NCBI GenBank assembly: GCA_002496485.1
Contig: DAJW01000042.1
Coordinates: 13,972-54,668, forward strand
From: Euryarchaeota archaeon UBA36
Lineage (GTDB): Archaea > Thermoplasmatota > Poseidoniia > Poseidoniales > Thalassarchaeaceae
DNA length: 40,697 nucleotides
Direction: 5' to 3'
Below are positions 17,566 to 40,675 of the stretch, in pieces. The position numbers and the translations under genes were made by a program. How positions within the stretch are numbered: position 1 is the first letter of the stretch; the number at the start of each line of letters is the position of its first letter. The notes beneath the pieces are model-generated. The model was not told the origin of the DNA. It saw only the letters and a list, made by a program, of their open reading frames with translations, and did no database searches.

Positions 17566-18159
17566 ATGATTCCCCCTGTGAGTAGCATGGTCGAGTTCCG
17601 ATTACCTATGTTACCACAACCGGGAGAAGTGGTTTGGTCGGTAAAGATCAATGGAATAGATGTAAAACTAAATATAGAAAGTAATGCCATTTTATTGGAT
17701 GTTTTACGGGATCAAGCTGGAAGTCTTGGTACAAAAAGGGGATGCGATATGGGTACATGTGGTTGTTGTTCAGTACTTGTTGATGGTGAGCCAAGATTAT
17801 CTTGTCTTACTTTAGCTGCTGAACTTAATGGTCATGAAATTACAACGGTAGAAGGTCTAGCTAATGGGCATCATCTTCACCCCATACAAAAAACATTTAC
17901 AGAGTTTGGTGGTAGTCAGTGTGGTTTTTGTACACCTGGTTTCTTAGTGGTTTCTTCCGCCTTATTATCCGAGAATAATGATCCTACAGACGAAGAAATT
18001 AAGACGGCAATTGAGGGAAATCTTTGCAGATGCACAGGATTCCAACAAATAGTCGATTCTATTCGAGCAGCATCTGATATCATAAAAGAAAATAATTCCA
18101 TTGAAGATTCGACTTCTGCAAAAAGTAATCCTCATCCAGGATTCATGGAGGGGGGCTGA
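17566..18159 (+). CDS. Molybdenum hydroxylase small subunit, two [2Fe-2S] clusters (CoxS/HcrC-like)
   Basis: The Cys patterns GCDMGTCGCCSVLVDGEPRLSC, then QCGFCTPGF and LCRCTG, are the canonical plant-type and type-II 2Fe-2S motifs of the xanthine dehydrogenase family. Confidence 0.9.
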   Translation: MIPPVSSMVEFRLPMLPQPGEVVWSVKINGIDVKLNIESNAILLDVLRDQAGSLGTKRGCDMGTCGCCSVLVDGEPRLSCLTLAAELNGHEITTVEGLANGHHLHPIQKTFTEFGGSQCGFCTPGFLVVSSALLSENNDPTDEEIKTAIEGNLCRCTGFQQIVDSIRAASDIIKENNSIEDSTSAKSNPHPGFMEGG

Positions 18160-18160
18160 A

Positions 18161-24655: not shown

Positions 24656-24672
24656 ATAAAGGAGATAAAAAA

Positions 24673-25728: not shown

Positions 25729-25748
25729 GGTTTTAGGAGTATGCAGAA

Positions 25749-27068
25749 ATGGCTTGGAGTCGTAAATCAGCGATGTTCGCTTCGCTGTCTATTGCGATGT
25801 ACTTGCTTGGTTTAGTACTTAGAAATCAGCAGCTAGTAACTGTGGCAGTTGTCCTACTCTCTTTCTTGACTTGGGCGGCACTTAGGACAGCTCATGGAGA
25901 TGTTTCTTCCTCGGGCAGGAGAATTGAAGATAATCAATTAGATGAAGGTGTACAGTTACAAAATATCGTAGCAATGAGGAAGGTTTCTACATCTAGAGTT
26001 TTTGAAGATGGGGAAATTGATGTAGTTGTTAGATTACAAAATAGATCAAATATTGCTAAAGTAATAGAAGTTAGAGATAGAGTTCCAGAAGTAATGAGGA
26101 TAAAGAAGGGTGCAAATTATGTTCTAATGGAAATTGGTCCACAAAGAGAAACTGAAATTTCTTATACTATTGAAGCTCCATTGAGGGGATTTTACACTAT
26201 AGGTCCAGTATGTATTAGGGTTCAAGATGAATTCGGACTATTTCATAATGAAAAAGAAATTCAGCTATACGATGACTATCTAGTATTCCCAAAAATGGAA
26301 GACATTAAGGATGCAATGATAAAAAGTAGAGTTCCGAAGATTTTTACTGGTGCCGTAGCTATCAGAAATCCTGGAGAAGGTTCTAACTTTTTCAACCTAA
26401 GAGAATACCTTCCAGGAGATCCGATGAGAAAAGTAAATTGGAAAGCAACTGCAAGACAAGATGGTAAGATGATGGTGAATGAATTCGAAAGGGATGCAGT
26501 TAGTGACGTTGTCTTGATTGTTGACAGTAGAGAGGTCAGTGAGACGGGACCTGTAAGTAGGAACTCCTTAGTTTTCAGTACTAGGGCTGCAGCCAGTCTA
26601 TCTCAGTATTTTCTTTCTAGGAGAGATTCTGTGGGCTTAGTTGTATACGGGGATGAAATAGTATCTGTTGATCGAGACACGGGTAAAAAACAACTTTACA
26701 TTCTTTTGACCAAACTAGCAGGAGCTATGGCTAAGGGAAATACTCCATTGAAGATTGTAACAAACAGAATTATGCCTCACATTAATAGAGGTAGTCCAAT
26801 AATAATAATGTCACCTCTAGAGGATGATCCGACAATCGTAGATGCAGTGAGAGATTTACGTTCAAGAAGTTTTGAGGTAACAATACTCTCCCCTAGCAGC
26901 TTAGAGTTTGAATTTGATGCTAGAAGACTTGACAGAACTGGATATGAGGTACTAAAAACTGAAAGAGATATTATGATTTCTGAACTTAGGGGGTTGGGAG
27001 CAAATGTAATGGATTGGGAGCCTGATATGCTCTTAACTACTGCACTGGCAGGGGCAAGAGGTTTTTGA
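25749..27068 (+). CDS. DUF58 protein (vWA-like partner of MoxR)
   Basis: Two N-terminal TM helices, the hallmark DUF58 motif FNLREYLPGDPMRKVNWKATAR, then a vWA-like DVVLIVDSRE segment. Confidence 0.85.
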   Translation: MAWSRKSAMFASLSIAMYLLGLVLRNQQLVTVAVVLLSFLTWAALRTAHGDVSSSGRRIEDNQLDEGVQLQNIVAMRKVSTSRVFEDGEIDVVVRLQNRSNIAKVIEVRDRVPEVMRIKKGANYVLMEIGPQRETEISYTIEAPLRGFYTIGPVCIRVQDEFGLFHNEKEIQLYDDYLVFPKMEDIKDAMIKSRVPKIFTGAVAIRNPGEGSNFFNLREYLPGDPMRKVNWKATARQDGKMMVNEFERDAVSDVVLIVDSREVSETGPVSRNSLVFSTRAAASLSQYFLSRRDSVGLVVYGDEIVSVDRDTGKKQLYILLTKLAGAMAKGNTPLKIVTNRIMPHINRGSPIIIMSPLEDDPTIVDAVRDLRSRSFEVTILSPSSLEFEFDARRLDRTGYEVLKTERDIMISELRGLGANVMDWEPDMLLTTALAGARGF

Positions 27069-27077
27069 GGTTATAAT

Positions 27078-28001
27078 ATGGTCGAAAAGAAAGGTCCTGT
27101 AGATACTTCCCACCTTTATGAAGGAAAGGTAGTTAGATCGTCTGCGCCCAGTAGAAAAAGGGCTGCAGGAAATATAAAGAGAGATACTGAAATACCAATG
27201 GATGCAGTGCCTGAAGTATTTGTTCCAAGTTGGATTGAAACCATTTTTGGTGGCCCAATAGTAACAAAAACTGAATTTCTTCCACCGGATAGAATGGTAA
27301 CTTCACTTCAGATAAGAGCTTCTATATCTCTTTTGATTCTATGCTTTCTGACCTTCATGATAACCCCGGTCTCGGGAACAGTTTGGTTTTCATTATCCAA
27401 TATTTTGGGCATTACCTTCTTGGGTACAATTTTTCATTTGGGACTTATTATGATCGGTTTAGTGGGCGGTTTCTATGGATTATTTCAGCGTGATCAGCGA
27501 GCATTGCTAGCATCATATGTAGCATTGATGATTGTAACTATAAGATTTGCAGGCAGTAAGGTAGAATTCGGACTTAGTTTTATGCCTGAAGGTGAGTTCT
27601 CCCAGAAGCTTCTACTTATTCTCTATGCGATTATTCTAGTTATGTATATCGAAGTTTCCAGTGGAATTATTCGATTTTCAATGTTAGATACATCAATAAG
27701 AAAGGGGGAGGTATACGTAATGAATGTTAACAAAATTACTAACCGATATGGTAGAGCATTGACAGTTACCCCCGTGGTTGCAGGATTAGTTGCAAGTTTG
27801 ACACTATTCATCAATCTAATTGTTCCATTTTTTGTGGGCATATTTGACCCAGTTTCTGCCAATAGATTGAGAGAAAGTGTTGAATTGACTAGTGTTTATG
27901 GAGTTGCTCTTGGAACAATGCTTGTCTTTATTGTAATTGCAGCGATGTTTGCAATTAACCTACCTTTGAGAATACAACAGTATATGGAAAGTAGAAATTA
28001 A
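27078..28001 (+). CDS. Polytopic membrane protein of unknown function, last gene of the MoxR operon
   Basis: 307 aa. A basic N-terminal tail of about 75 aa, then at least 6 hydrophobic helices. It starts 9 nt after the DUF58 gene. No recognised motif. Confidence 0.6.
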   Translation: MVEKKGPVDTSHLYEGKVVRSSAPSRKRAAGNIKRDTEIPMDAVPEVFVPSWIETIFGGPIVTKTEFLPPDRMVTSLQIRASISLLILCFLTFMITPVSGTVWFSLSNILGITFLGTIFHLGLIMIGLVGGFYGLFQRDQRALLASYVALMIVTIRFAGSKVEFGLSFMPEGEFSQKLLLILYAIILVMYIEVSSGIIRFSMLDTSIRKGEVYVMNVNKITNRYGRALTVTPVVAGLVASLTLFINLIVPFFVGIFDPVSANRLRESVELTSVYGVALGTMLVFIVIAAMFAINLPLRIQQYMESRN

Positions 28002-28784
28002 TTAGATTTCTAAATCTACTATTACAGGAGCATGGTCTGAGACGATTAGTCCACCTTCTCTCATAACTTCTGCCGAAACTAATGATTTTCTTGCTGCTTG
28101 GTTTGCGAGAATATAATCAATTCTCCATCCTCTGTCTCTTTCTCGAGCATTTCGGAAATTCGACCACCAAGTATACGGTCCTTTCATTTCTCCCAAATGA
28201 TTTCTAAGTAAGTCAAACCAACCTGAATCTAACATTCTAGTGAACCATTCTCTTTCATGCAAAAGGAATCCTGAAGTATTCTTATTTCCCACGGGATCCC
28301 AAATATCATTCTCAGTATGAGCAATATTAAGATCGCCGCATAACAAGGTTGGTTCTCCCGAGTCTAGATACTTTTTAGACCAAGACATCAAATCTTCTAA
28401 CCATTGATCCTTGTAATTTTGCCTATCTAATCTTGAAGAGCCATTTGGAAGATAAATATTTATGCAAGTCAAATTATTATGTTTTGTTACCAAAACTCTA
28501 CCTTCTGGATCTCTAACTTCATCTAGTTGTGTATCAATTCCTCTCTCAATCTCTATCATTCCTATACGAGAGCAAGACATGACTCCCGAATATCCCTTTT
28601 TCTGTGCTGGATGCCAAATTAACTCATATCCTTCTGGTTCTTTCCAATCTTTGGGCATCTGCTCTGGTAAAGCTCTTACTTCTTGAAATAACATAATATC
28701 TGCATCAATTCTCTCTATGAAATCCTCAAGACCTTTGCGAACTGCAGCTCTAATTCCATTTAAATTCCAAGTTACAACCCTCAT
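28002..28784 (-). CDS. xth: Exodeoxyribonuclease III / AP endonuclease
   Basis: MRVVTWNLNGIRAA, FQEVR, LCGDLNIAH, WRIDYIL and SDHAPV are the EEP-family ExoIII motifs. Confidence 0.9.
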   Translation of the reverse strand: MRVVTWNLNGIRAAVRKGLEDFIERIDADIMLFQEVRALPEQMPKDWKEPEGYELIWHPAQKKGYSGVMSCSRIGMIEIERGIDTQLDEVRDPEGRVLVTKHNNLTCINIYLPNGSSRLDRQNYKDQWLEDLMSWSKKYLDSGEPTLLCGDLNIAHTENDIWDPVGNKNTSGFLLHEREWFTRMLDSGWFDLLRNHLGEMKGPYTWWSNFRNARERDRGWRIDYILANQAARKSLVSAEVMREGGLIVSDHAPVIVDLEI

Positions 28785-28788
28785 AATA

Positions 28789-31239
28789 TCACTGTGAAAA
28801 ATCTTTGATTTTCTCTACCAAATCCATTTTTGAAATTCGCCACATTCCATAAGGTGTTAGAATTACAGAAATTAAAGTGACCGTACTAATTAGAACTAGG
28901 GTCACAGATAAATTCAAACTAACTGTAATATAGAACGACCATGTAAGGAATGAAGATAATAGAAGTTGAGTTCCGGCTATAGTGAAAATGCAAGCGCTAA
29001 TTCCCCCTATTATTCCTATCACTAGGTGTTCACCCAGCATCATTGAGCCGATCCTCTTTATCGGTGCTCCAAGAACTCTAAGGGTCGCGATCTCTGAGTC
29101 TCTTTCTGATAGATTCATTAGAAGAGTATTGAATAATACCACCACTGCGATAATTAGACCTAATGCTAGAATTGATCCAAATATCGCTTGTTGTTGCTCC
29201 AGTATCGACTCAAAGCTACTAATTGCATCTTGTTTTTGGGAAATTCCAATTGATAATTGGGCGAGTTGATTATCCATTTCCCCTCCTTCCGGTAGATCTA
29301 TCAGAACGGAAGTGGCCTCTATTCCAATTATTGGGGATAAGTCTTGACGATGAAAATATATAGTTCGTGTGATTTCACCTTGGGTTATACCTGAAATTTC
29401 AATTTCTTTTGAAATTGATCCAAACATTATTTTTTGAGTTTCTCCTATATTCCAATCCAAAAAGAATTGCGTCCCCTCATCTATCAGGACTTGAGTTATT
29501 TCTGAATTTTTACTTGGAATATTGCCTTCTTTCAAATTTACTCCATACATTGAGTTAGTTTCTGTAGAAATTTCATCTAAACCAACAGTTGATATAAAAC
29601 GAGAGTCACCTGTTATTGTTGCGGGGAATTGTAACATTAACTCGTAGTTAGCTCCATTTTCATTAGCCCAATCTATTACGTCTTGTTCTTCTGATGGTGC
29701 AATATTAGCATTTATATCCCAATTCTGCCTATCTCTAACATTTCCTACTATAGATTCTTCCATTGATTCCATCATCACCATAATAGATCCAAAAATCAAC
29801 ATTGAAAGTCCTACCGCGAAAAATGTGAAGAGTAGCCTCACAGGTTTTCTTATACTTGATCTGATTGTAAGCCCAACTGTTGAAGGGAACATAGAAGTGA
29901 ATTTCTGAATTCTTCTTGAAGAAAGTCTAACCTCATGCTGACCACGGAGTATCTCCAACGGCTGAATCTTTGATGATTGAATCGCCGGTGAAATTCCGGA
30001 AAAGAGAACTACCAAAATTGCTGTTGCAGAAATCTGAAAAACTATCGAGTTGATGTTTGCAGGTTCCAAAATAGGTATTCCTAGAATGCCTTCATAGATA
30101 TCAAGCATCGCTGGACCACCTAAGGTTAGGCCGAAAATAGAACCAAAAATACATCCAGTTACTCCTATGAATAAAGGCATTAGAATATACCCCGGGATTA
30201 TCACTCTGCGGGGAATTCCTAAAGTCCTAAGTATTGCAATCTCCCTTGCTTGAGATTGAACTAGTCTTTGTAGGCTAAGGAAGATAGTTATGCCTGCTAC
30301 TATAGCTATCATAGCAGTAACGGGTACATATGTTTGCATTGCACTCTCTGCATCAAGTCTTAACAGTTCCACTGAGGATATTTTTGATCTACTATATGCA
30401 CTAGAAGGATTATCATCTTCATCACCTAAAAGAGAATTAATCTTTTCTAATAGTGAAGAAAGTTGTTGACCTTCGATTTCTTCCGTAGATTCTAAGTCAT
30501 AATCAGGAGTTCCTTGGATATCAATAAGGAGTAAGTTTGCTACGCCAGAATCTAGATTAGCTAATTTTTCCAATCCTTCTGATGTTAAATAACCAGTCGC
30601 TAATGTTCCTGGTTCAGCTGGAAATAATGATCCTTCCTCGGCGAAATAAAGATGATTTGAATGGAAACCAATTCCTACAACATCGAAATCGATGCTGCCG
30701 GATCCGGACCCGATAGTAATTGAATCGCCAATAGAAATGCTCATTCCAGTAGCGACTCTAGAGTCTACAACAATCTCGTTATCATTAATGGCCTCTACTC
30801 CAGATGCCAATGGATGATTTGGAATCCAGACCCTATCTATATTTCCTTCATCAATTCCATGCCAAATAGAAGGAATGATGATATCATTTCCTTCTGAATC
30901 TTTATGAAACATTATTCCTTCTCTCTTTAATCTGGGTTCACATTCTTTGAATTCTAAATCTGATTGGTCTAAAAATAATTGATTTATTTTCTGACATAGG
31001 ATTGCTGATTCTTCCTCGCTCCATACTCCACTCGGATTTTCTATCCATATATCAGGTAAATTTAGTCCATTTTCAGTATCTGCATATATGTCATCATACA
31101 TCTGTGAAGCTGTATGAGCATAAGATGCGAAAGCTACTCCAGCGAACACTCCTACGGTAACTAGTAAAGTTACTGCGATTAGTCTAATTCTAGTTCTCAT
31201 TAGACTGCGAGTTAATCTCTTAGTTAGAAGTATTAACAA
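28789..31239 (-). CDS. ABC transporter permease with duplicated FtsX/MacB-type domains and two large extracytoplasmic domains
   Basis: 816 aa. Each half has an N-terminal TM, a roughly 250-aa ectodomain, and three TMs with FtsX-like segments (AILRTLGIPRRVI and ATLRVLGAPIKRI). Confidence 0.85.
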   Translation of the reverse strand: MLILLTKRLTRSLMRTRIRLIAVTLLVTVGVFAGVAFASYAHTASQMYDDIYADTENGLNLPDIWIENPSGVWSEEESAILCQKINQLFLDQSDLEFKECEPRLKREGIMFHKDSEGNDIIIPSIWHGIDEGNIDRVWIPNHPLASGVEAINDNEIVVDSRVATGMSISIGDSITIGSGSGSIDFDVVGIGFHSNHLYFAEEGSLFPAEPGTLATGYLTSEGLEKLANLDSGVANLLLIDIQGTPDYDLESTEEIEGQQLSSLLEKINSLLGDEDDNPSSAYSRSKISSVELLRLDAESAMQTYVPVTAMIAIVAGITIFLSLQRLVQSQAREIAILRTLGIPRRVIIPGYILMPLFIGVTGCIFGSIFGLTLGGPAMLDIYEGILGIPILEPANINSIVFQISATAILVVLFSGISPAIQSSKIQPLEILRGQHEVRLSSRRIQKFTSMFPSTVGLTIRSSIRKPVRLLFTFFAVGLSMLIFGSIMVMMESMEESIVGNVRDRQNWDINANIAPSEEQDVIDWANENGANYELMLQFPATITGDSRFISTVGLDEISTETNSMYGVNLKEGNIPSKNSEITQVLIDEGTQFFLDWNIGETQKIMFGSISKEIEISGITQGEITRTIYFHRQDLSPIIGIEATSVLIDLPEGGEMDNQLAQLSIGISQKQDAISSFESILEQQQAIFGSILALGLIIAVVVLFNTLLMNLSERDSEIATLRVLGAPIKRIGSMMLGEHLVIGIIGGISACIFTIAGTQLLLSSFLTWSFYITVSLNLSVTLVLISTVTLISVILTPYGMWRISKMDLVEKIKDFSQ

Positions 31240-31245
31240 ATATTC

Positions 31246-31929
31246 TCACTCCACATTTGTATCGGAAATAACTTTTCCACTATCAATTCTAATTACTCTA
31301 GTGGCATATTCTATTAGGGATTCATCGTGAGTGACGAAAATGCACGTTATATCTTCTGCCTCACACGCTTCTACTAGAACTTTCATTACCATTGATGAAG
31401 TTGTAGAATCGAGATTTCCAGTCAGTTCATCGCCGAGTAATAATCTAGGTTTTTTTGCTAGACTTCTAGCAATTGCTACTCTTTGTTGCTGACCGCCGCT
31501 GATTTCTGCTGGAAATCTGTCGGCTTCTGCTTCAAGGCCCACAAGTTTCAATAAATTTTTAGCTCTATTTTCGTCTCTTTCATCTGCTAGTTCTTGGATA
31601 AGAAGTATATTTTCCAATACGGTTAAGTCTTGAAGTAGGTTAAAAAATTGAAACACATATCCAATATTTTCCCTTCTGAATGATGTCATTGATTCCGAAT
31701 TATCTTTTGGTACTGTTTTTCCTGAGAAATTGTATTCTCCACTTGTTGGTGAATCTAGTGCAGAGAGACAATTCAGGAGAGTTGACTTTCCAGAACCTGA
31801 TGGTCCTAATAATATCACTCTTTCTCCAGCATTTATCTCTATATTTACTCCATCTAGGGCCTTAACTACTCCAGAAGGCATTTCATAATATCTCTCTATG
31901 TTTTTCAACTCTACTAATGAGTTCACCAT
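31246..31929 (-). CDS. ABC transporter ATP-binding protein, MacB/LolD-type
   Basis: Walker A GPSGSGKSTLL, Q-loop, signature ISGGQQQRVAIARSLA, Walker B LLLGDELTGNLD and H-loop VTHD. Confidence 0.92.
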   Translation of the reverse strand: MVNSLVELKNIERYYEMPSGVVKALDGVNIEINAGERVILLGPSGSGKSTLLNCLSALDSPTSGEYNFSGKTVPKDNSESMTSFRRENIGYVFQFFNLLQDLTVLENILLIQELADERDENRAKNLLKLVGLEAEADRFPAEISGGQQQRVAIARSLAKKPRLLLGDELTGNLDSTTSSMVMKVLVEACEAEDITCIFVTHDESLIEYATRVIRIDSGKVISDTNVE

Positions 31930-31964
31930 ACAATGCCGAACTTGTGAGATTTTATTGACCTTTG

Positions 31965-34103
31965 CTATGCTTCAGAAGCCCCAGAAAAAAATGCCATTGA
32001 ATCACGAAATAGTTCTTCCCTTCTTCTTTGTCTATTATTTCTGATATGAATCCATGTAAATGCTATAACTAATAGAATTAAAAAGGGGAAAAATGCTTCT
32101 GCATGGTATCTCTCCATGAATTCAATAATTCCTCTGGCAGTATATGCCCAAGTTATAGAAGCTATTGACCCACCTATCAAACATGCAATTAGCACTCTTT
32201 CAAACTTCATCCTAGAAACTAACCCTAGCATAGCTCCAACTAATACCCCACTGGCCATAAATGGTATCCAGACAAAAACAATTAATCCCCAGAATCCGTA
32301 CTTATCGATTCTTGATCTATTTTTTTGGGCCACGAACTCTACAGTCGAGAGAATATCGCCCATGAATGGATTTTGTAGAAGTGCTCCAGAAATCCCTCCT
32401 CTCTTAGCTACCATTGCTTCGCCACTAAGTTCTTCAGAACCTTGTTCCACCCTTCCTGCTACTGCTCTGTCTGCTAATGTTGAGCGTTCATTACGAGCAC
32501 TGACCACTAAAGTTCTTTTTCCAATATATTCAGATAGTTCTGATTTTAATTGTTCCCTTAAATCGCCTTGAAGATTCTTATATGTTGGTTTGAATAGGAA
32601 ATATGCGAATCGTGAGACGGGCCTGTATATTACTCTAACAAATACTGACTCTTCATCTGCCATTATTGCAGATCCATAGTCTGCAACATCATGTTTCTTG
32701 AACCATCTTCTCATACTTTCTCCAAATGCAACTTCTAATTTTCCGAAATTACTCATACTACTAAAGAAATCCTGATAATCCTCTAAAATCTTCAGTTTAG
32801 TATAATCAATTTGATCTAATGAAGTGGGTTCAATAAATTCTGTTCTATCGCGATTTTTATTATGTTCTTTATCGATTCTATTAGTTTTCAGTTGAAGTGG
32901 CCTCATTTCTCCAAATATAGCAAATTCTGATAAAATTTCTTTTATTATTCTGGCTTTTACATCTACTGGAGTTGCAATCGTTCTCCTAGTAATTTGATAT
33001 GGTAAAAATACATCTATAGAAATAGCCCGATCTTGAACCTTCATTGTGTCATAATCGGGCCTAATTTGTAATCTCTGGCTTGCTTTAATGATAGTCTTAT
33101 GAATCAATCTATGCATTTGTTCTGATGTTAGTACATCATCTGTCTCCCGGTGATATAGTCTATGCATTAGTGGATATTGTACGCACAAGAAAAATACTGA
33201 CATTCCCATTGAGACTAGTGCCATAAACCAAGGAGGGACTTGCGCACTTCCGCCTGTTAACATTGCAGTCTCTCTTCCACCTACCCACTCAGCTCCCATC
33301 AAGACCCATCCCCATGCACCTAATTGCTGAAATGTCCAACAAGCTCGAGATTCTTCATCTATTTTTTCCATAGTTTTGTAAGTTTCTTTAGCCCCCCATA
33401 GAGAGGATTTTTCCTTCAATTCTACATTAATTATTATGGATTTAGAATGGAAAATCGTCGCAGGATCGGAATTTAACTTACTAAGACTTTCATTGAATGT
33501 TAGATTAGAATAATCCGAATTATCATCTGACCAGACATGGAGTTCAATTGAAACATCATATTCTCCCTGACCGAGAATTTCATCATCTATAGATAAAGAT
33601 AAATCTCCCTTACCACTTATAATTTCTATCAATTCAGTTTCATTGGAGAATTTCACCATAAGTATTGAAGAATTTTCGGGGGCATTTTGACTACTGACAT
33701 GTAAATTATAATCTTCATCAATCCAATTCTGAAACCATATTTGTTCAGACTTATCCACGCATTCATTTGGATCTAAAATAGTTCCCGAAGTTGCCTTATC
33801 AATATTTATTGAATCGCCCATCAAGATTCCTGATGATGCAATTAAGATTGTTCCAAAAAATACCACTCCTGCTGTTAAGCCAAATACTAGAGTATAATCA
33901 TCAATTGTTCTAGGTAAAATCGTATTTACTAAAAATCTTTTATCGGGATTTGTCCTTCTTTCGCGTATTCTAGATAATTCTGAATCAATACTATCCTGTT
34001 CAATGTTGGAAGCTAATTTCTTCAAGTCTTCCAGATTGACTTCTCCGTCTTCATTGACATCAAGAATTTCTGCGATTCCAGTATTGGTATCGTCAGATGG
34101 CAT
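31965..34103 (-). CDS. Multidomain membrane protein: N-terminal EF-hand loop, ectodomain, cytoplasmic domain and a C-terminal Sm_multidrug_ex-like (COG2426) membrane module
   Basis: 712 aa. DVNEDGEVNLED at residues 15-26. At least 3 TMs in the N-terminal half. The C-terminus KYGFWGLIVFVWIPFMASGVLVGAMLGLVSRMKF resembles the small multidrug export protein family. The middle 300 aa are not recognised. Confidence 0.6.
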   Translation of the reverse strand: MPSDDTNTGIAEILDVNEDGEVNLEDLKKLASNIEQDSIDSELSRIRERRTNPDKRFLVNTILPRTIDDYTLVFGLTAGVVFFGTILIASSGILMGDSINIDKATSGTILDPNECVDKSEQIWFQNWIDEDYNLHVSSQNAPENSSILMVKFSNETELIEIISGKGDLSLSIDDEILGQGEYDVSIELHVWSDDNSDYSNLTFNESLSKLNSDPATIFHSKSIIINVELKEKSSLWGAKETYKTMEKIDEESRACWTFQQLGAWGWVLMGAEWVGGRETAMLTGGSAQVPPWFMALVSMGMSVFFLCVQYPLMHRLYHRETDDVLTSEQMHRLIHKTIIKASQRLQIRPDYDTMKVQDRAISIDVFLPYQITRRTIATPVDVKARIIKEILSEFAIFGEMRPLQLKTNRIDKEHNKNRDRTEFIEPTSLDQIDYTKLKILEDYQDFFSSMSNFGKLEVAFGESMRRWFKKHDVADYGSAIMADEESVFVRVIYRPVSRFAYFLFKPTYKNLQGDLREQLKSELSEYIGKRTLVVSARNERSTLADRAVAGRVEQGSEELSGEAMVAKRGGISGALLQNPFMGDILSTVEFVAQKNRSRIDKYGFWGLIVFVWIPFMASGVLVGAMLGLVSRMKFERVLIACLIGGSIASITWAYTARGIIEFMERYHAEAFFPFLILLVIAFTWIHIRNNRQRRREELFRDSMAFFSGASEA

Positions 34104-34178: not shown

Positions 34179-34219
34179 TTACAAATCTTTTTTTGACGTA
34201 TAGTGGTAATTTTAATGTC

Positions 34220-34236
34220 CTCCTACGTAGTAGGAG
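34220..34236 (+). promoter_or_regulatory. Possible 5'-UTR hairpin that overlaps the GGAG ribosome-binding site of the giant gene
   Basis: CTCCTAC-GTA-GTAGGAG gives a perfect 7-bp stem with a 3-nt loop and ends 4 nt before the ATG at 34241. Confidence 0.3.
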
Positions 34237-34240
34237 AAGT

Positions 34241-37200
34241 ATGTCCAGTGTTAACCGGGTGTCGACCCCCCTCGCCCTACTTCTCATAACATTGATGATT
34301 TCAGCCCCATTATCCGGCTGTACTGGAAATATGGTTGATGATGAATTTGAAATTTCTTCTGAGCAAAATGAAGAATCTGAAAAAATTCAGACAACAGATG
34401 AAAACGAAAATACTGTAGATGAATATTATGATAAATCCGAAAGTGAAATCGGTAAACAATTAGTTGAAGATGGGAAGCAATCGGAAATTGGAATTCCTGA
34501 TTTAGAAAATCCAATTCACGGATGGGAAGACTCAAGTAATATAGGTGAGGCACTTTTACGGAATAGGAAAGCATCATATATACCGACACAGGATTGGGAA
34601 GTTAGGACTGGAGAAGAACTAATTCAGGGATGGAATGTTCTGGCTCATAGCTACCCCTTACCTACTGAATGGATGAGTGATCTAGCTGAAATTGGAGTAG
34701 AATGTGTAAGTTTCTTCTACCCGCAGGGATTGCACTGTAATGTACCTAATATAGCTCCTAACATACTTTTGGAATATGGCGTAATTGGGGCTTTCAAATT
34801 AGACTCTACTGATAAATTTGATTTAGAAACTGTCGCAATAATGAAGGGTGAAAAACAAGCTAGTGCCATTAAGAACGGTGATCTATATGTTGTAAATATC
34901 GTTTTTTCGGGATCATTTGATGCGCATTTATCCAGTCTAGAAAATGACCTTTTTCAAAATATAGAGTTTTTTTCAGGGCGTTTTGCCACAGTTGAAACCG
35001 ATATTTTTGGCTTTGAATGGTTATCCAATCAGGATTATATCGAATGGATGGATTTGGAGCTTCCCATTACTCTCGAAAATGATGTAGGCGCGGATATCGT
35101 AAATGCAGATTGGGTCAGGGATTCTGCAAATATGGGTGGTCCTTTGAACACTCTAACGGGTTCTGGTGTCATAGTTGGAGTAATGGATTCAGGACTTGAT
35201 AATGCAGTTGTTTGTAGTGATTTAGCTGATTGTAATACAAAGAATTCAGGAATAATGTCTGATTTCCAGGGACGGATTGTGGGAGTTGAGAATTTTGTAC
35301 AGTGCGGAAATTCAGATGGCCCTGAAGATCCTGATGGGCATGGAACACACGTTGCAGGCACTGTTCTTGCGGATGGTTCGAGTAGCACAGGTAGTGCAGA
35401 ATATTCCGGAATTGCACCAGAAGCTATGATTTATATGCAGTCAGTTCACTCTGTATGTGGCTCCAATCCTGATGATGAATTGGCAACACCTTCTGACTTT
35501 TCAACTATTTTTCAACCAGCTTATGATGCTGGGGCAAGGGTCCATACAAATTCATGGGGTGCTAATTATCAAAATAATGGATACCATACCTACGCACTGA
35601 GAATTGATACGCAGGCTCACAACCTAGATGACCTTACCATTCTTTACGCAATGGGTAATGATGGGTTGGATTCCAACGCAGATGGAGAAGTAGATACTGG
35701 ATATATGAATACACATGCGACTGCAAAGAACATCATTTCTGTAGGTGGCTCTGAAAATTACAGAGAAGGTTCCAATATCATAACTTGGGATGATTTTAAA
35801 TTTAAAAGTGGAGCATTAAAATTTACTGAACCACCTATTTACGGTGACAGTGTGGTTGATGATATTGACGGAGTAATGGCTATTTCCAATAGGGGACCTA
35901 CTTCCGATGGGAGATTAAAGCCAGATATATTGGCACCGGGATCTTTTATTGCATCAACTCTTTCATCTGAAGCTAGCTGTGACTGGGGAGTTCCTCAGAA
36001 TCCTTCTTACTGTTACATGACGGGAACTTCGATGGCAACACCAATGGTTGCTGGTGGTGCAGCACTGATTCTGGAATATTTGAATAATCAAGGGATTGCG
36101 AATCCAGCTTCTGCATTAGTGAAAGCAATGTTAATCGCTGGTGCCCATGACATGGAAGGACAATATTCATCCGGCGGCTCAGATAGTGAAAATTCTGCTG
36201 CTGAATCTGCACCAAACGTCCATGAAGGTTGGGGTAGAATGGACCTGCAGGGTTCCATTCAGACTGGATTTACTGAAGGAATTAATATTTCAACATATGA
36301 AAGTCACTCACTAAAAATGGAAGTTCCTGTGGGAATTTCTGATTTCAGAATAGTACTTTCATGGAATGATCCACCTAATACGCCTTCTGCACAAAAACAG
36401 CTAGTTAATGATTTGGATATTGCTTTAAGGGACCCTACTGGTGTATGGTATGACTATGATAATGATGATGTAAACAATTTAGTGGGAATATCTGTATCAG
36501 CACCTGATCCAGGTGATTGGGAAGTTATAATTAATGGGACTAATGTGCCTAATGGGCCTCAAGAATATTATTTGGCTTCAAGTAATGGATTGGCGATAGG
36601 AGATTCGAGAAATCCTGTTTCTGGAATTTTAAATTCTGCTGGATTCCAATCTGGATCACTTTTTACTGAAACCACCTTATCAGCAGGAGAGAATCATTTT
36701 TGTGCTATTTTCGATGATTCTTCACTGCATTGTAGGGGAGATAATAGCTATGGTCAGCTTGGAGATGGCACTAGCACTAATAGACTTACAATGACCGAAG
36801 TAGCCCTAGATAATGGTAGAACAGCAGTTTCTGTCAGCTCCGGCAACCATCATACTTGCGCGATTTTGGATGATGCTAGTCTTCATTGCTGGGGGCGTAA
36901 TAACAAAGGTCAACTTGGTTTTGCTGGAAGTTCATCTTCTACCATGCCTACTGAAGTCAATTTTGGTTCATTGTATCCAGTCCAGATTTCATCCGGGAAG
37001 AGTCATAATTGTGTAATTTTAAACGATGCAAGCCTACAGTGTTGGGGAGATAATAGCTATGGTCAGCTTGGAGATGGTGGTATTGTGGATAGATACACAC
37101 CCGCTACAGTGAATTTTGGAAGTAAAAATGTACTAGCTGTTTCTGCTGGTTCTAATCATACTTGTGCATTACTTGATGACCAGAGTTTGGAATGTTGGGG

Positions 37201-40200
37201 GAGTAATGAATTTGGTCAGCTTGGTGATGGAACGACTGATGATGAGTATTTTCCTTCAACCGTCGTATTGGGCGGTTCATCAGTTGCGGTTTCCTCTGGG
37301 GATGGACATACATGTTCACTACTTTCTGATAAAACTCTGAAATGCTGGGGAGATAATAGCTATGGTCAGCTTGGAGATGGAACTCAGGTATCAAAATGGT
37401 CGCCAGAAGTAATCGAGTCAGATGTCGTCAATATTGATTCGGGGAATAATCACAACTGTTTGATTGATATTAATCAAGTTCTGAAATGTTGGGGAAAAAA
37501 TAACATGGGACAAGTTGGAGATGGAACTACTAGCATGGCATTTTCTCCTACTGAGATAAGTCTAGGTCCAGTAATTAATCCATTGTCAGTTACATCTGGT
37601 AGCACAATTTCTTGTGCGGTAACTAGTAATGATTTACTGAAATGTTGGGGTGAAATTGGTGAAAATTCTGTACCTGTATCATCTCCAATAACTGTGGATT
37701 TACCAAGATGGACATATATAAATTCGGCTGAGAGAGATCTAGATGGAGATGATGAATTGAACATCTTTGATACTCATGGAGCTGGAGATTCTGATGGAGA
37801 TGGGTTTGCTGGTGGTGATGACTATGACGATAATAATCCAACTAAGGCAAAATTTTGTCCAGTTCCTACATATGGAAGGTATGTTTGCCTACCAGCAACT
37901 AAGGGTTTCTATGTGGATACTCCGGGAACTTCAGTCAAGAGTCCAGCCAGAGTTGGTCATTATGTAGCAAATGATGGAGCATCTAGTGATTCTCCGTGTC
38001 CACCAGGGACATATCAATCTCTCACTGGACAGACATCTTGCGATGATGCAAGAGCAGGATATTATGTTGAAAATCCTCAGTCGGAATTTGATACTCCTTG
38101 TCCTGGCGGGACATTCAATACTGAAACGGGATCAACATCAGTATCTGATTGTAGAGGATCTGATCCTGGATATAACGTTCCAATTCTTACTGAAATAACA
38201 CTGGGCTCATTCCATTCATGTTCCATATTAGATGATGGTTCAGTAAGTTGCTGGGGGAGTAATGAATTTGGGCAGCTTGGAGATGGGACCCGAGAATCTA
38301 AACATATTCCTACTAAGGTTCTACTTCCACAAGGAAAAAGAGTGGATGGGTTAAGTTCAGGATCTTACCATAATTGTGCAATTATTGATGATGATACTTT
38401 TAGATGTTGGGGGAGTAATGAATTTGGTCAGCTTGGTGATGGAACTAGTATTGAAAGAACAAGTCCAGTTATAGTTTCCTTAGGAGGGGGAAAGACAGCA
38501 ACCAGCGTGTCATCTGGTGAAGGTCACACATGTTCAATTTTGAATGATAAAACAATCAAATGTTGGGGCGATAATAGTAATGGTCAGCTTGGAGATGGGA
38601 CAAGAACGGGCAGTCACAGTCCAATTGCAGTTAATCTGGGTGGTAGTGATTTGGCTATTTCTATCTCCTCTGGATCATACCATACTTGTGCATTAACTAC
38701 AACTAGGGATGTTAAGTGTTGGGGAGATAATTATCACGGACAGTTAGGATTAGGAGATAATGTAGATAGATTGGTTCCTAATCTAGTAACCTTACCTGCT
38801 GATACTGATGTAATATCGATTTCTTCTGGTTCATTTCATACTTGTGCTGTGTTGAATAATGGTGAAGTATATTGCTGGGGCTTTAATGCATATGGTCAGC
38901 TTGGAGATTCTTCAACAAACAATAGTAATATCCCTGTAAAATCTAGATTACTAGAAAATCAAATTTCAACACAAGTTTCATCCGGTGTTTTTCATACCTG
39001 TTCATTACTTGATGGGGGAGAAATTGCTTGTTGGGGAGATAATACGGTTGGACAACTGGGGGATGGGACCTCTACTTCCTCGACTATACCAATTATTGCT
39101 GACTTACCTGTAGATAGTGCTGCATTATCAATATCCGTAGGGCAAAGACATTCATGTTCCATATTAGATGATGCTACACTTTATTGCTGGGGCTATAATG
39201 AATTCGGGCAGCTTGGTGATGGAACGACTGATAATAGTGATTCTCCAAAAAATATAGACTTAATGCATGGTTCAGCTGCCCAAATTCAATGCTCTCCAGG
39301 AACTTATCAGCCAGATTCTTCTCAGACATCTTGCATCCTTGCTGATAGAGGTTATAGTGCCCCATCAGGTGGAGCTTTAGATCAAATTGGATGTACTAGA
39401 GGATATTATTCAAGTCTAAGAGGGCAGGCAACATGTTCTGAGGCTTCTATTGGCTACTATGTTGACGAATTACTTGCAACCTCTCAAACGGCTTGTCCTT
39501 CCAATACTTCTACCATAAATCGAGCAAGTGGAAATATAGATTTCTGTATTGAAGATTTTGATGGTGATCTTATTCCAGATGTTTCAGATTTGGATGACGA
39601 TAACGATGGAGTAAGTGACAGATTTGATTTATGGCCATTAGATCCTGAGTTAGCATTAGATGCGGATGGAGATGCTATTGCAGACAGTGTTGATGTTGAT
39701 GATGATAATGATGGAGTTAATGATACTGAAGATTTGTTTCCAAATAATCAAAATGAATGGGCAGATGAAGATAATGATGGCATAGGAGATAATTCGGATG
39801 ATGACGATGATAACGATGGAAGAGTTGACTCCTTCGATAAGTTCCCAAATAATCCTTTAGAATGGTCAGATTTTGATGATGATGGCATAGGGGATAATGA
39901 AGATGATAATGACGATAATGATCAATTCTTAGATTCTGTAGATGCCTTTCCCAATGATGCGACAGAATGGTTGGATACAGATTCTGACTCTATTGGAAAT
40001 AATGCAGATGATGATGATGATGGAGATGGTTTCACTGATGATATAGATGTATTCCCTTTGCTATCCACTGAATGGCTGGATACAGATGGAGATAGTTTTG
40101 GTGATAATATAGACATGTTTGATGAGGGCGGTTTAGTAATTGATGGAATCACTTATAGATTGGCCGAAAACGATGTTAATTGGTGGATTGACTCTGATGG

Positions 40201-40675
40201 TGATGAAATTGGAGATATTAGTCAAATAGATTTAGAAAAAGGAATAATTGTTGGAGACCAATGTCCAGACATTCCTGGAATTAATTATACTGAACCCCAA
40301 TTAAATCATGGAATTGTCGCAAAGGGTTGGTTACTAGGATGCCCGAAGGAAATCGAAGAAATCGAAGAAATCGAAGAGGAAGTCGAAGAGTCGGGGCTTG
40401 AAGCAGCATTAATCAAAGATACAGATGGAGATGGTCAACCTGATGCTTATGACCTTGATGATGATGGTGATGGAATTACAGACTGTGTCATTACTGACAG
40501 AGATTGCATTCCCGATGATAAATATCCTTTAGACGCTACGAGACCATTCGATAACAATTCATGGTCTATGATTTTAGTTAGCTTTGGATTTATTTCATTG
40601 GTGGTTTATCGGCTGGTGGGATGGCAACGTAGAAAAATTGCTAAACTTAAATCTAAAAGAATTAGGCTAGATTAA
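34241..40675 (+). CDS. Giant cell-surface subtilase (S8) with two RCC1-like propeller arrays, ephrin-receptor-like Cys repeats, thrombospondin-type-3-like Ca-binding repeats and a C-terminal TM anchor
   Basis: The ATG at 34241 gives a signal peptide MSSVNRVSTPLALLLITLMISAPLSGC; the TTG at 34193 is the ORF-track start. Catalytic triad: VMDSG (Asp codon 35186), HGTHVAG (His codon 35339) and GTSMATPMVAG (Ser codon 36029). See the domain features below. Confidence 0.9.
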   Translation: MSSVNRVSTPLALLLITLMISAPLSGCTGNMVDDEFEISSEQNEESEKIQTTDENENTVDEYYDKSESEIGKQLVEDGKQSEIGIPDLENPIHGWEDSSNIGEALLRNRKASYIPTQDWEVRTGEELIQGWNVLAHSYPLPTEWMSDLAEIGVECVSFFYPQGLHCNVPNIAPNILLEYGVIGAFKLDSTDKFDLETVAIMKGEKQASAIKNGDLYVVNIVFSGSFDAHLSSLENDLFQNIEFFSGRFATVETDIFGFEWLSNQDYIEWMDLELPITLENDVGADIVNADWVRDSANMGGPLNTLTGSGVIVGVMDSGLDNAVVCSDLADCNTKNSGIMSDFQGRIVGVENFVQCGNSDGPEDPDGHGTHVAGTVLADGSSSTGSAEYSGIAPEAMIYMQSVHSVCGSNPDDELATPSDFSTIFQPAYDAGARVHTNSWGANYQNNGYHTYALRIDTQAHNLDDLTILYAMGNDGLDSNADGEVDTGYMNTHATAKNIISVGGSENYREGSNIITWDDFKFKSGALKFTEPPIYGDSVVDDIDGVMAISNRGPTSDGRLKPDILAPGSFIASTLSSEASCDWGVPQNPSYCYMTGTSMATPMVAGGAALILEYLNNQGIANPASALVKAMLIAGAHDMEGQYSSGGSDSENSAAESAPNVHEGWGRMDLQGSIQTGFTEGINISTYESHSLKMEVPVGISDFRIVLSWNDPPNTPSAQKQLVNDLDIALRDPTGVWYDYDNDDVNNLVGISVSAPDPGDWEVIINGTNVPNGPQEYYLASSNGLAIGDSRNPVSGILNSAGFQSGSLFTETTLSAGENHFCAIFDDSSLHCRGDNSYGQLGDGTSTNRLTMTEVALDNGRTAVSVSSGNHHTCAILDDASLHCWGRNNKGQLGFAGSSSSTMPTEVNFGSLYPVQISSGKSHNCVILNDASLQCWGDNSYGQLGDGGIVDRYTPATVNFGSKNVLAVSAGSNHTCALLDDQSLECWGSNEFGQLGDGTTDDEYFPSTVVLGGSSVAVSSGDGHTCSLLSDKTLKCWGDNSYGQLGDGTQVSKWSPEVIESDVVNIDSGNNHNCLIDINQVLKCWGKNNMGQVGDGTTSMAFSPTEISLGPVINPLSVTSGSTISCAVTSNDLLKCWGEIGENSVPVSSPITVDLPRWTYINSAERDLDGDDELNIFDTHGAGDSDGDGFAGGDDYDDNNPTKAKFCPVPTYGRYVCLPATKGFYVDTPGTSVKSPARVGHYVANDGASSDSPCPPGTYQSLTGQTSCDDARAGYYVENPQSEFDTPCPGGTFNTETGSTSVSDCRGSDPGYNVPILTEITLGSFHSCSILDDGSVSCWGSNEFGQLGDGTRESKHIPTKVLLPQGKRVDGLSSGSYHNCAIIDDDTFRCWGSNEFGQLGDGTSIERTSPVIVSLGGGKTATSVSSGEGHTCSILNDKTIKCWGDNSNGQLGDGTRTGSHSPIAVNLGGSDLAISISSGSYHTCALTTTRDVKCWGDNYHGQLGLGDNVDRLVPNLVTLPADTDVISISSGSFHTCAVLNNGEVYCWGFNAYGQLGDSSTNNSNIPVKSRLLENQISTQVSSGVFHTCSLLDGGEIACWGDNTVGQLGDGTSTSSTIPIIADLPVDSAALSISVGQRHSCSILDDATLYCWGYNEFGQLGDGTTDNSDSPKNIDLMHGSAAQIQCSPGTYQPDSSQTSCILADRGYSAPSGGALDQIGCTRGYYSSLRGQATCSEASIGYYVDELLATSQTACPSNTSTINRASGNIDFCIEDFDGDLIPDVSDLDDDNDGVSDRFDLWPLDPELALDADGDAIADSVDVDDDNDGVNDTEDLFPNNQNEWADEDNDGIGDNSDDDDDNDGRVDSFDKFPNNPLEWSDFDDDGIGDNEDDNDDNDQFLDSVDAFPNDATEWLDTDSDSIGNNADDDDDGDGFTDDIDVFPLLSTEWLDTDGDSFGDNIDMFDEGGLVIDGITYRLAENDVNWWIDSDGDEIGDISQIDLEKGIIVGDQCPDIPGINYTEPQLNHGIVAKGWLLGCPKEIEEIEEIEEEVEESGLEAALIKDTDGDGQPDAYDLDDDGDGITDCVITDRDCIPDDKYPLDATRPFDNNSWSMILVSFGFISLVVYRLVGWQRRKIAKLKSKRIRLD
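35159..36250 (+). other. Peptidase S8 (subtilisin-like) catalytic domain within the giant ORF
   Basis: D-H-S triad motifs in the canonical order and spacing. It is followed at about 36250-36650 by a P-domain/PPC-like beta-sandwich (FRIVLSWNDPP, GDWEVIINGTN). Confidence 0.85.
36650..37700 (+). repeat. RCC1-like repeat array 1: six canonical blades plus one degenerate blade
   Basis: The motif H-x-C-x(9)-CWG-x-N-x-x-GQLGDG recurs about every 50 aa. The seventh copy (LLKCWGEIGENS) is degenerate. Confidence 0.85.
37856..38152 (+). repeat. Cys-rich ephrin-receptor-like (GCC2_GCC3-type) repeats, block 1
   Basis: CPVPTYGRYVC, CPPGTYQSLTGQTSC and CPGGTFNTETGSTSVSDC fit the C-P-x-G-[TY]-[YF]...C pattern. 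Confidence 0.6.
38183..39262 (+). repeat. RCC1-like repeat array 2: seven canonical blades
   Basis: Seven copies of CWG-x-N-x-x-GQLG, each preceded by [FY]H[ST]C. Confidence 0.85.
39290..39547 (+). repeat. Cys-rich ephrin-receptor-like repeats, block 2
   Basis: CSPGTYQPDSSQTSC, CTRGYYSSLRGQATC and CPSNTSTINRASGNIDFC. Confidence 0.6.
39554..40120 (+). repeat. Thrombospondin-type-3-like acidic Ca2+-binding repeat array
   Basis: About 11 D-x-D-x-D-G-x-x-D loops, many within a longer unit D-x-FP-x(3-4)-EW-x-D-x-D-x-DG-IGDN-x-D. Two more loops lie at about 40420-40480 and a short set at about 37735-37850. Confidence 0.75.
40349..40390 (+). repeat. In-frame 9-nt tandem repeat (GAAATCGAA x3 plus degenerate copies) encoding EIEEIEEIEEEVEE
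   Basis: Three perfect units at 40349-40375, followed by GAGGAAGTCGAAGAG. Confidence 0.9.

Follow-up and report, generated by a model that had tools for sequence, protein, structure and literature searches.

A predicted giant cell-envelope-anchored subtilase with two RCC1-like propellers in its stalk from a Marine Group II archaeon

The 40,697-nucleotide stretch of contig DAJW01000042.1 (Euryarchaeota archaeon UBA36) analysed in this study, hereafter the window, contains a giant gene whose product joins a subtilase to two RCC1-like propellers, cysteine-rich repeats and loops of the thrombospondin type 3 (TSP3) kind. Its source organism is a Marine Group II archaeon (Poseidoniales). Archaea of this group, which have not been cultured, are the most abundant planktonic archaea of surface oceans and are thought to feed on protein from outside the cell. 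The analysis revealed that the giant protein belongs to a known kind, the cell-envelope-anchored multidomain subtilases, and that it is the build of the stalk that is new. Judging from sequence comparisons, the gene is a clade-specific stalk variant of a C-terminally anchored subtilase family that occurs throughout Poseidoniales. On balance, the protein is probably a Thalassarchaeaceae-type (Marine Group IIb) C-terminally anchored giant subtilase, which is made as a zymogen, displayed on a stalk and used to feed the cell, and whose stalk cassette was recruited once.

Integrity of the Giant Gene

The giant gene (34241–40675, + strand) is one unbroken open reading frame (ORF) starting with ATG. 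An alternative TTG codon is located upstream at position 34193, and alignments of orthologs revealed that ATG 34241 is the start common to them. The product translated from this codon consists of 2144 amino acids (aa), is strongly acidic (346 D + E versus 101 K + R), and contains 53 Cys residues. An identical protein was found on a 103-kb Tara Oceans contig, and the 90% cluster of the giant protein has 35 members originating from assemblies deposited in ENA, JGI, Tara and NCBI. Versions of 2114, 2126 and 2144 aa from independent assemblies align without gaps at 99.7–99.9% and differ solely in the called start. Moreover, the DNA repeats inside the gene do not exceed 95 nt and are 60–84% identical, and are therefore too diverged to have been collapsed during short-read assembly. 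A chimeric or collapsed assembly was thus ruled out. The surface protein of about 2140 aa described in the original prediction, which had been made from the sequence alone, agrees with these results, and the domain order, archaeal origin and predicted surface location given there were all borne out. In Pfam scans, Peptidase_S8, RCC1, Ephrin_rec_like and TSP_3 all scored above their cut-offs. The features of the gene and their coordinates are listed in Table 1.

Protease Head and Pro-Domain

The head of the giant protein is a KP-43-type subtilase with its own beta C-domain. The Peptidase_S8 family (PF00082) covers aa 307–665 with 137.7 bits (cut-off 21.8), and the catalytic triad, D316 (DSG), H367 (HGTH) and S597 (GTSMATP), as well as the oxyanion residue N473 (GND), show no variation in two alignments of homologs (16 and 36 sequences) and align with those of KP-43, so that the intact D/H/S triad noticed in the sequence stands. 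A sequence search matched aa 282–509 and 534–780 to residues 3–190 and 192–432 of KP-43 (PDB 1wmd) with an E-value of 8.3 × 10−58. The same structure was the first Foldseek match (TM-score 0.89; root-mean-square deviation (rmsd) 2.7; 34% identity) of an AlphaFold2 (AF2) model of aa 85–800, which was built from 36 sequences and has a mean predicted local distance difference test (pLDDT) value of 82.3 and a predicted TM-score of 0.89. The strands of the C-domain were modelled with pLDDT values of 83–96. Since the match to 1wmd runs through both the catalytic and the C-terminal beta domain, it explains the P-domain-like sandwich of the original prediction: the sandwich is present, and it is the beta C-domain of KP-43, the Pfam family PPC giving a weak score there (18.1 bits, below its cut-off of 25.9). 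The features that define the S8 family and its KP-43-type group are found in the protein, and it is predicted to be proteolytically active.

The approximately 290 residues in front of the protease, originally reported as unmatched, turned out to comprise an acidic linker (aa 28–88) and a conserved, confidently folded pro-domain of two lobes (aa 89–279). In the AF2 model, aa 85–279 form two alpha/beta lobes (pLDDT 78–97), the second of which (pLDDT 78–94) has the beta-alpha-beta-beta-alpha-beta order seen in the I9 propeptides of subtilases. The pro-domain is conserved across the Marine Group II homologs, C155 and C166 included, and is followed by a junction (aa 280–302, model residues 196–218) with pLDDT values below 50. 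Foldseek aligned the head model over 500–620 columns to the pro-forms of three subtilases, namely 3afg (ProN-Tk-SP), 3whi (pro-subtilisin E) and 2e1p (pro-Tk-subtilisin); these alignments, in which the whole model was superposed, extend beyond the length of the mature enzymes. Fold and position suggest that the protein is a zymogen, and we infer from the model that cleavage would fall within aa 280–302.

Propellers, Cys Repeats and Ca-Loops of the Stalk

The RCC1 and RCC1_2 profiles (PF00415 and PF13540) together marked 13 stretches in the whole protein. Array 1 contains seven stretches by the RCC1_2 profile and six by the RCC1 profile, while array 2 has seven by each, and the WD40_RLD family (PF25390; cut-off 150 bits) matched the two arrays with 252 and 287 bits, respectively. 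The blades are spaced 48–52 aa apart and carry one C-x9-C pair each. Their register is identical to the one read in the original prediction, with six canonical blades and a degenerate one (CWGEIGEN) in array 1 and seven in array 2. The prediction of the structure, for which aa 795–1330 were modelled by AF2, gave 28 strands with pLDDT values of 86–98 for propeller 1, and Foldseek superposed it on UVR8 over 360 columns (TM-score 0.89; rmsd 1.8 Å), with RPGR, HERC2 and RCC1 coming next. According to this model, propeller 1 is a closed seven-blade RCC1-like domain. A Ran-type or guanine-nucleotide-exchange function of the propellers is not expected, because the predicted location of the RCC1-like domain is extracellular in this case.

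Each propeller is accompanied by a set of Cys repeats, both of which were assigned, as had been proposed, to Ephrin_rec_like (PF07699; 32.5 bits for set 1 and 39 bits for set 2, cut-off 23.1). The two units, each composed of a propeller and its Cys repeats, are colinear and share 35% identity, which points to an old tandem duplication.

The remainder of the stalk is dominated by acidic loops. Eleven of them are contiguous (aa 1772–1958), one is located at aa 1984, two at aa 2060–2085 and another two at aa 1166–1194, which closely matches the about 11 contiguous loops, the two to three additional ones near the C-terminus and the short acidic segment after array 1 that were noted originally. TSP_3 (PF02412) was found in four stretches with 32.7 bits (cut-off 25) only when aa 1766–1964 were scanned alone, and was not listed in the whole-protein Pfam scan at E ≤ 0.01; the NCBIfam model throspo3_MtsC matched the array with an E-value of 8.6 × 10−9, under its own cut-off. 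Loops with the D-x-D-x-D-G-x-x-D motif are predicted to bind Ca2+. The segment of aa 2008–2090 has no Pfam match, and its 'LPGN.LGCP' motif and loops are kept in the orthologs.

The Two Termini

The signal peptide ends in a lipobox, L24-S-G-C27, which conforms to the pattern [LVI][ASTVI][GAS]C. This motif is part of an insertion of 11 aa, which the window protein shares with just one ortholog, L002 (82% identical), and the alignments revealed that the motif is absent from the 10 other RCC1-type orthologs, which have a plain signal peptide, and from the homologs P0001–P0014. Thus, the lipobox-type signal peptide of the original prediction is there, whereas the reading of the protein as a lipoprotein is weak, because the lipobox is not conserved.

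At the opposite end, the predicted EIEEIEEIEEEVEE stretch, transmembrane (TM) helix (aa 2108–2128) and basic tail are all present. The arrangement 'RPF....W – TM helix (Y-R) – basic tail ending SK(K/R)IR(I/L)' is kept in every RCC1-type ortholog. No NCBIfam model of a C-terminal sorting signal matched the last 85 aa at E ≤ 10, and of the 3496 ORFs encoded by the sampled Marine Group II loci (1.38 Mb, made up of the flanks of giant-gene loci only), a hidden Markov model of the last 50 aa recovered just the orthologs. Within this sample, an archaeosortase or PGF-CTERM-type sorting signal was rejected, the motif being found in no other ORF. The C-terminal segment is therefore best read, from its sequence, as a putative family-specific type I anchor.

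Distribution of the Family

A scan of species-representative genomes yielded 574 relatives of the head, and the best 80 loci were fetched. All of these but one (L081, Methanolobus) belong to Marine Group II (Poseidoniales) or to unclassified archaeal metagenome-assembled genomes (MAGs). Twelve of the fetched loci (L002–L012 and L061), whose names include Thalassarchaeaceae, MED-G35 and REDSEA-S42_B7, are of the RCC1 type. With the exception of L007, which is a fragment, they encode ORFs of 2129–2210 aa (two of which run off the contig end) with exactly 14 blades and 9–13 strict TSP3-like motifs, and the nine complete ones share the same anchor. The architecture was also detected on 11 further metagenome contigs (L083, L084, L107, L109, L129, L147, L167, L178, L179, L183 and L189). 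In a neighbour-joining distance tree of 78 heads, the 13 RCC1-type heads (the window and the 12 loci) form one clade.

The other type, present at about 65 loci (Poseidoniaceae, Poseidonia and others), carries TSP3-like loops only. Its ORFs, such as that of L014 (1874 aa), are 1560–1910 aa long and resemble the giant protein in having a signal peptide, the pro-domain and a KP-43-type head at 35–45% identity, and a C-terminal TM anchor. In contrast, they have neither RCC1 blades nor Ephrin_rec_like repeats, PF00082 being their only Pfam family, and contain 17–31 TSP3-like loops, which include Cys residues. They also differ in their gene neighbourhood and in the lack of the palindrome found upstream of the giant gene (see below). 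Where these ORFs are complete, a C-terminal TM helix is mostly recognisable and is followed by a long, often Pro-rich cytoplasmic tail. In L045, L047, L052, L054–L057, L063, L067 and others, this tail ends in a conserved Pro-rich motif, ...EFGLNR.IPPPPPGFE, which the RCC1-type proteins do not have.

According to the literature, members of the family have already been counted in Marine Group II genomics, both as 'extracellular subtilisin S8' (PMC6864105, PMC4660358) and as 'thrombospondin genes' (PMC6461757), and RCC1 and TSP3 arrays as well as N-terminal S8 domains of giant prokaryotic proteins have been discussed (bioRxiv 10.1101/2023.11.21.568195). No paper was found that describes the S8 and double-RCC1 architecture in archaea. 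To this extent, the combination of S8, RCC1, Cys and TSP3 modules is undescribed, as originally supposed; with 12 genome loci and 11 metagenome contigs, however, it is not a one-off.

Origin of the Blades and of the Stalk Cassette

The original prediction regarded the RCC1, ephrin-receptor-like and TSP3 modules as mainly eukaryotic, which the comparison of the blades contradicts. The blades are of the C-x9-CWG type (Pfam RCC1_2), which is common in prokaryotes. When aa 795–1330 were searched against 5.8 billion proteins, 7988 of the 8000 scored candidates were significant, and the best matches were proteins of the 'alpha-tubulin suppressor-like RCC1 family', the named ones coming from Chloroflexota. 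The homolog lists contained no protein longer than about 1400 aa and no self-match, and full-length orthologs were taken from the genome and metagenome loci. A search of representatives with aa 1–1200 retrieved giant proteins with up to 25 RCC1 stretches, the orthologs P0257 and P0001 being the only ones among the best 150; as these were filled by giant multi-RCC1 proteins, the census of S8 and RCC1 fusions outside the RCC1-type clade is incomplete. Given the prokaryotic best matches and the giant multi-RCC1 proteins, the blades are of an ordinary prokaryotic extracellular type and not a eukaryote-like import. A recent eukaryotic origin of the propellers was rejected for lack of support, since the best matches are prokaryotic RCC1 proteins and the cassette is common to archaeal paralogs.

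Two such paralogs are P0277 (1232 aa) and P0271 (2025 aa, partial; NCBI MDB3870679.1, 'Euryarchaeota archaeon'), in which RCC1 and Ephrin_rec_like modules were found but no S8 domain; they have no pro-domain either, and differ in the number of propellers. P0277 consists of a signal peptide, a 'PGFQxGSIF' motif, a propeller, a 'SERDxDGD..LNIFD' motif, a second propeller, 'C..G.YGRY.C' Cys repeats, TSP3-like loops and a C-terminal TM helix. P0271 has a signal peptide, the elements of P0277 and more propellers, and ends in Cys repeats. The cassette and all three junction motifs are shared with the giant protein, in which 'SERDxDGD..LNIFD' forms the Ca-loop junction after propeller 1. Pairwise BLAST of the non-propeller parts (junction, linker and Cys repeats) of the giant protein against P0277 and P0271 gave E-values of 10−9 to 10−24, and the propeller/Cys junction (aa 1136–1330) used as a query in the homolog search found nothing at E ≤ 10−3. 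The RCC1/Cys-repeat cassette of P0277 and P0271 appears to be a reusable display scaffold. The simplest history suggested by these comparisons would be that the protease head found throughout the order was fused, once, to a surface scaffold that already existed.

Upstream Palindromic Element

The ATG of the giant gene is directly preceded by an element with the general form GG(C/T)AATTTTAATGT-CCTCCTAC-NNN-GTAGGAG. It contains a TATA-like TTTTAAT, the midpoint of which lies at about −28 relative to the ATG, and an inverted repeat of 7 bp, whose arms enclose a variable 3-nt centre and whose 3' arm includes GGAG. Except for this centre, the element is identical in nine aligned species, the proteins of which are about 45% identical, and the DNA further upstream cannot be aligned. 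One copy is present at each of the 12 RCC1-type genome loci and on L001, the window's own contig. The 11 further metagenome contigs carry the element as well, and on them it always precedes a gene of the RCC1-type family. It was found at none of the 69 other loci and nowhere else in the window (one hit in total versus 0.04 expected). The element also explains why a 'GNFNVLL.RRS' peptide seems to be conserved when the ORFs are lengthened at their 5' end to TTG or another start codon.

The leader had no match in Rfam and an RNA fold z-score of −1.8 only. As judged from its sequence, the element may be either a TFB-recognition element (BRE)/TATA promoter that gives rise to a near-leaderless mRNA and is combined with a palindromic operator, or a hairpin hiding the GGAG ribosome-binding site. 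Because the stem never varies, covariation cannot separate the two.

Genomic Neighbourhood

The RCC1-type loci share an upstream block, which in the window is divergent from the giant gene and includes Exo_endo_phos, FtsX and ABC genes and a gene for a 712-aa membrane protein with a C-terminal Sm_multidrug_ex/VTT domain, as well as a GpsA-like gene downstream. The upstream block is kept at L002–L012 and L061 and is absent at the TSP3-only orthologs, which have an unrelated 634-aa ABC protein at this place. A functional link of the giant gene to the FtsX, ABC and 712-aa genes was not supported, the synteny being confined to the RCC1-type clade.

Further genes of the window include a set at 23021–28001 (+), composed of a MoxR-type AAA ATPase (AAA_3), DUF58, a weak DUF4350/ABC_transp_aux match and an unannotated 307-aa ORF, which is reminiscent of MoxR/DUF58 operons of the Bat-like kind. 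A 962-aa fused E1 dehydrogenase (E1_dh + Transket_pyr + Transketolase_C; 11314–14202, +) and a molybdopterin-containing large subunit of the xanthine/CO-dehydrogenase type with its FAD subunit (18101–21925, +) are encoded by ordinary metabolic genes.

Table 1. Coordinates of the giant gene's domains, its upstream element and the divergent gene block in the window.
Feature	Residues (aa)	Position	Strand	Basis
Divergent upstream block: Exo_endo_phos 260 aa, FtsX permease 816 aa, ABC ATPase 227 aa, 712-aa protein		28002-34103	-	
Invariant upstream element GGTAATTTTAATGT-CCTCCTAC-GTA-GTAGGAG-AAGT		34205..34240	+	36 nt, directly before ATG
Signal peptide ending in lipobox L-S-G-C	1-27	34241..34321	+	sequence reading
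Acidic low-complexity linker	28-88	34322..34504	+	sequence reading; poorly conserved, partly insertion relative to homologs
Two-lobed N-terminal pro-domain	89-279	34505..35077	+	homolog conservation, AF2 model, Foldseek
Flexible junction of pro-domain and catalytic domain, candidate autoprocessing region	280-302	35078..35146	+	pLDDT <50
S8 catalytic domain, KP-43 type	303-668	35147..36244	+	Pfam PF00082, PDB 1wmd, Foldseek
Catalytic codons	D316, H367, N473, S597	35186-35188, 35339-35341, 35657-35659, 36029-36031	+	
Beta jelly-roll C-domain, KP-43 type	669-790	36245..36610	+	aligns with 1wmd residues ~300-432
RCC1-like propeller 1, seven four-stranded blades, last degenerate	810-1154	36668..37702	+	WD40_RLD, AF2, Foldseek
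Acidic Ca-loop segment SAERDLDGDDELNIFD...DSDGDGFAGGDD	1160-1200	37718..37840	+	sequence reading
Ephrin_rec_like Cys set 1, 6 Cys	1206-1304	37856..38152	+	Pfam PF07699
RCC1-like propeller 2, seven canonical blades	1315-1680	38183..39280	+	WD40_RLD, 7 RCC1 stretches, blade register
Ephrin_rec_like Cys set 2, 6 Cys	1684-1769	39290..39547	+	Pfam PF07699
TSP3-like acidic Ca-loop array, ~12 loops	1772-1995	39554..40225	+	Pfam TSP_3, motif list
Two-Cys segment (C2008-C2034), EIEEIEEIEEEVEE acidic stretch and two TSP3-like loops	2008-2090	40262..40510	+	sequence reading
Putative C-terminal anchor: RPF motif, TM helix (with Y-R), 16-aa basic tail QRRKIAKLKSKRIRLD, stop	TM helix 2108-2128	40541..40675	+	ortholog conservation

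Comparison with Known Systems

The closest characterised relatives of the head are KP-43 of Bacillus sp. KSM-KP43 and SubHal (5fax), the catalytic and beta jelly-roll domains of which are homologous to aa 282–780 of the giant protein. These enzymes differ from it in being soluble, secreted and of about 434 aa, with no stalk, no TM anchor and, in the deposited chains, no two-lobed pro-domain. Tk-SP of Thermococcus kodakarensis (3afg) is likewise archaeal and combines a propeptide with an S8 and a beta jelly-roll domain (Foldseek, 613–620 columns, E-value 4 × 10−34; sequence E-value 7 × 10−17), whereas it is small and soluble, has a propeptide of a single lobe, and carries neither repeats nor an anchor.

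The cell-envelope proteinases of Gram-positive bacteria (lactococcal and streptococcal CEP, the C5a peptidases ScpA and ScpB, and SpyCEP) follow the same logic: an S8 head at the N-terminus is joined through a long spacer of several domains to a cell anchor at the C-terminus, and the protease is displayed outside the envelope. They are weak relatives in sequence and fold (7edd, 5xya, 31mr, 6vjb and 3eif), the similarity of the heads having E-values of 10−5 to 10−10. Their stalks are composed of PA, Fn3 and other domains, with no RCC1, Cys-rich or TSP3 modules, and they are attached to peptidoglycan through LPXTG and sortase. In spite of the shared head-spacer-anchor logic, the giant protein stands outside this group, as its similarity to these proteinases is weak and both its stalk domains and the chemistry of its anchor are different. 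A further likeness is that to the ectodomain of the plant receptors ACR4 and CR4 (7a0k and 7a0j; fold E-value about 5 × 10−16), which also has an extracellular seven-blade RCC1-like propeller and a Cys-rich domain followed by a TM helix. These eukaryotic receptor kinases are distant matches (16–19% identity, ranks 48–49 of the fold matches), and the likeness is an analogy of layout.

Proposed Working and Alternatives

Following Sec export, the giant protein would fold into a zymogen whose pro-domain sits on the active site, and autoprocessing would take place in the flexible junction. The C-terminal helix would tether the enzyme, and the head would be held outside the cell envelope, at the far end of a stalk stiffened by disulfides and Ca2+. 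In this position it could cut dissolved or particulate protein to peptides, which would be taken up by the peptide-dependent heterotroph; Marine Group II archaea have been described as proteolytic heterotrophs with 1–4 extracellular S8 genes per MAG (PMC6864105). The two propeller/Cys units would be rigid spacers and probably also binding surfaces for substrate or particles, although their sequence would fit spacers, binding modules or both. The cassette would have been recruited once from protease-less surface proteins of archaea of this same kind, and would have replaced most of the TSP3-like array used by the other Poseidoniales orthologs. The role suggested in the original prediction, Ca-dependent attachment coupled to extracellular proteolysis, seems a reasonable possibility.

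Several observations weigh against this proposal. The profile matches of the pro-domain to the pro-regions of pro-subtilisin E and Csp are marginal (E-values 0.02–1.3), and neither the I9 propeptide family nor any other Pfam family was found on aa 1–300 at E ≤ 1. The Ca-loop and Cys-rich part (aa 1157–1330) was modelled with pLDDT values below 40, and the predicted rigidity of the stalk is hence drawn from what is known of these families. In the window species, the lipobox implies that the N-terminus could be membrane-attached before processing. Furthermore, a nutritional role and a role in processing or shedding are not separable by sequence alone.

The latter role belongs to an alternative, which we regard as considerably less probable than a feeding enzyme, namely that the giant protein is in the first place an adhesin or structural envelope protein, whose propellers, Cys repeats and TSP3 loops attach the cell to particles or to other cells, and whose S8 head mainly processes the protein itself or its neighbours in the envelope during maturation or shedding instead of providing food. 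About 1350 of the 2144 residues belong to repeat modules of kinds annotated as adhesive, the cassette occurs without a protease in P0277 and P0271 and so has a function of its own, TSP3 genes have been read as adhesion factors in Marine Group II (PMC6461757), and for giant proteins with an S8 domain at the N-terminus, it has been proposed that this domain acts on the very protein that carries it (bioRxiv 10.1101/2023.11.21.568195). On the other hand, the head is constant across Poseidoniales and the stalk is swapped between clades, which marks the protease as the constant function. The KP-43-type homology argues in the same direction, as enzymes of this family are broad-range degradative proteases. 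In addition, transcripts of extracellular peptidases rank with the most abundant ones of Marine Group II transcriptomes, S08A being one of the four dominant extracellular peptidase families (PMC4660358). It is improbable that the protein serves as a recognition-and-attack device against phytoplankton or other microbes, in which the propellers would bind a surface ligand and the protease would damage the envelope of the target. Marine Group II does correlate with phytoplankton blooms (PMC8821943), predation by some bacteria has been connected with giant proteins that contain peptidase, RCC1 or TSP3 modules (bioRxiv 10.1101/2023.11.21.568195), and the layout of propeller, Cys-rich domain and TM helix is that of ACR4/CR4; however, domain scans of the giant protein detected neither a toxin domain nor a pore-forming or lytic glycosidase one, the genes around it have housekeeping or transport functions, most Poseidoniales orthologs lack any propeller, and Marine Group II populations were mostly free-living in some surveys (PMC6864105).

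We likewise attach little probability to a mature enzyme that is not simply held by its C-terminus, either because it is released by cleavage near the membrane or because, in this species, an N-terminal lipid anchor tethers both ends. It is common for subtilases to trim extensions of their own chain, both KP-43 and Tk-SP are secreted in soluble form, and the lipobox is present in the window protein and L002. Yet few parts of the RCC1-type orthologs outside the catalytic residues are conserved as well as the TM helix, the RPF motif and the basic tail, and such conservation would be hard to explain for an anchor that is discarded. The lipobox is missing in 10 of the 12 orthologs, and a lipid anchor at the N-terminus would be lost together with the pro-domain if the latter is cleaved off. 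As an extension of the stalk-displayed feeding protease, and a rather speculative one, the propeller/Cys units may be specific receptors, e.g., for a phytoplankton polymer or a defined protein substrate, which would make the protein a 'capture-and-cleave' organelle defining the niche of one Thalassarchaeaceae clade; a dedicated regulator would then switch its expression through the invariant palindrome at the start codon.

Significance

The giant protein reveals no new mechanism; it is mechanistically as expected, ecologically relevant and unusual in its build. The anchored subtilase family is a strong candidate for the main cell-surface protease of Marine Group II. Its head is constant throughout the order, and its stalk appears to have been swapped once for the double-propeller cassette. 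The large gene is unbroken and found in conserved synteny, and RCC1-type genes are accompanied by an invariant putative control element. These properties define targets that can be addressed directly by metaproteomics, by expression in a heterologous host and by the mapping of transcripts, and the RCC1-type architecture may serve as a marker that separates a Thalassarchaeaceae clade from the other Poseidoniales.

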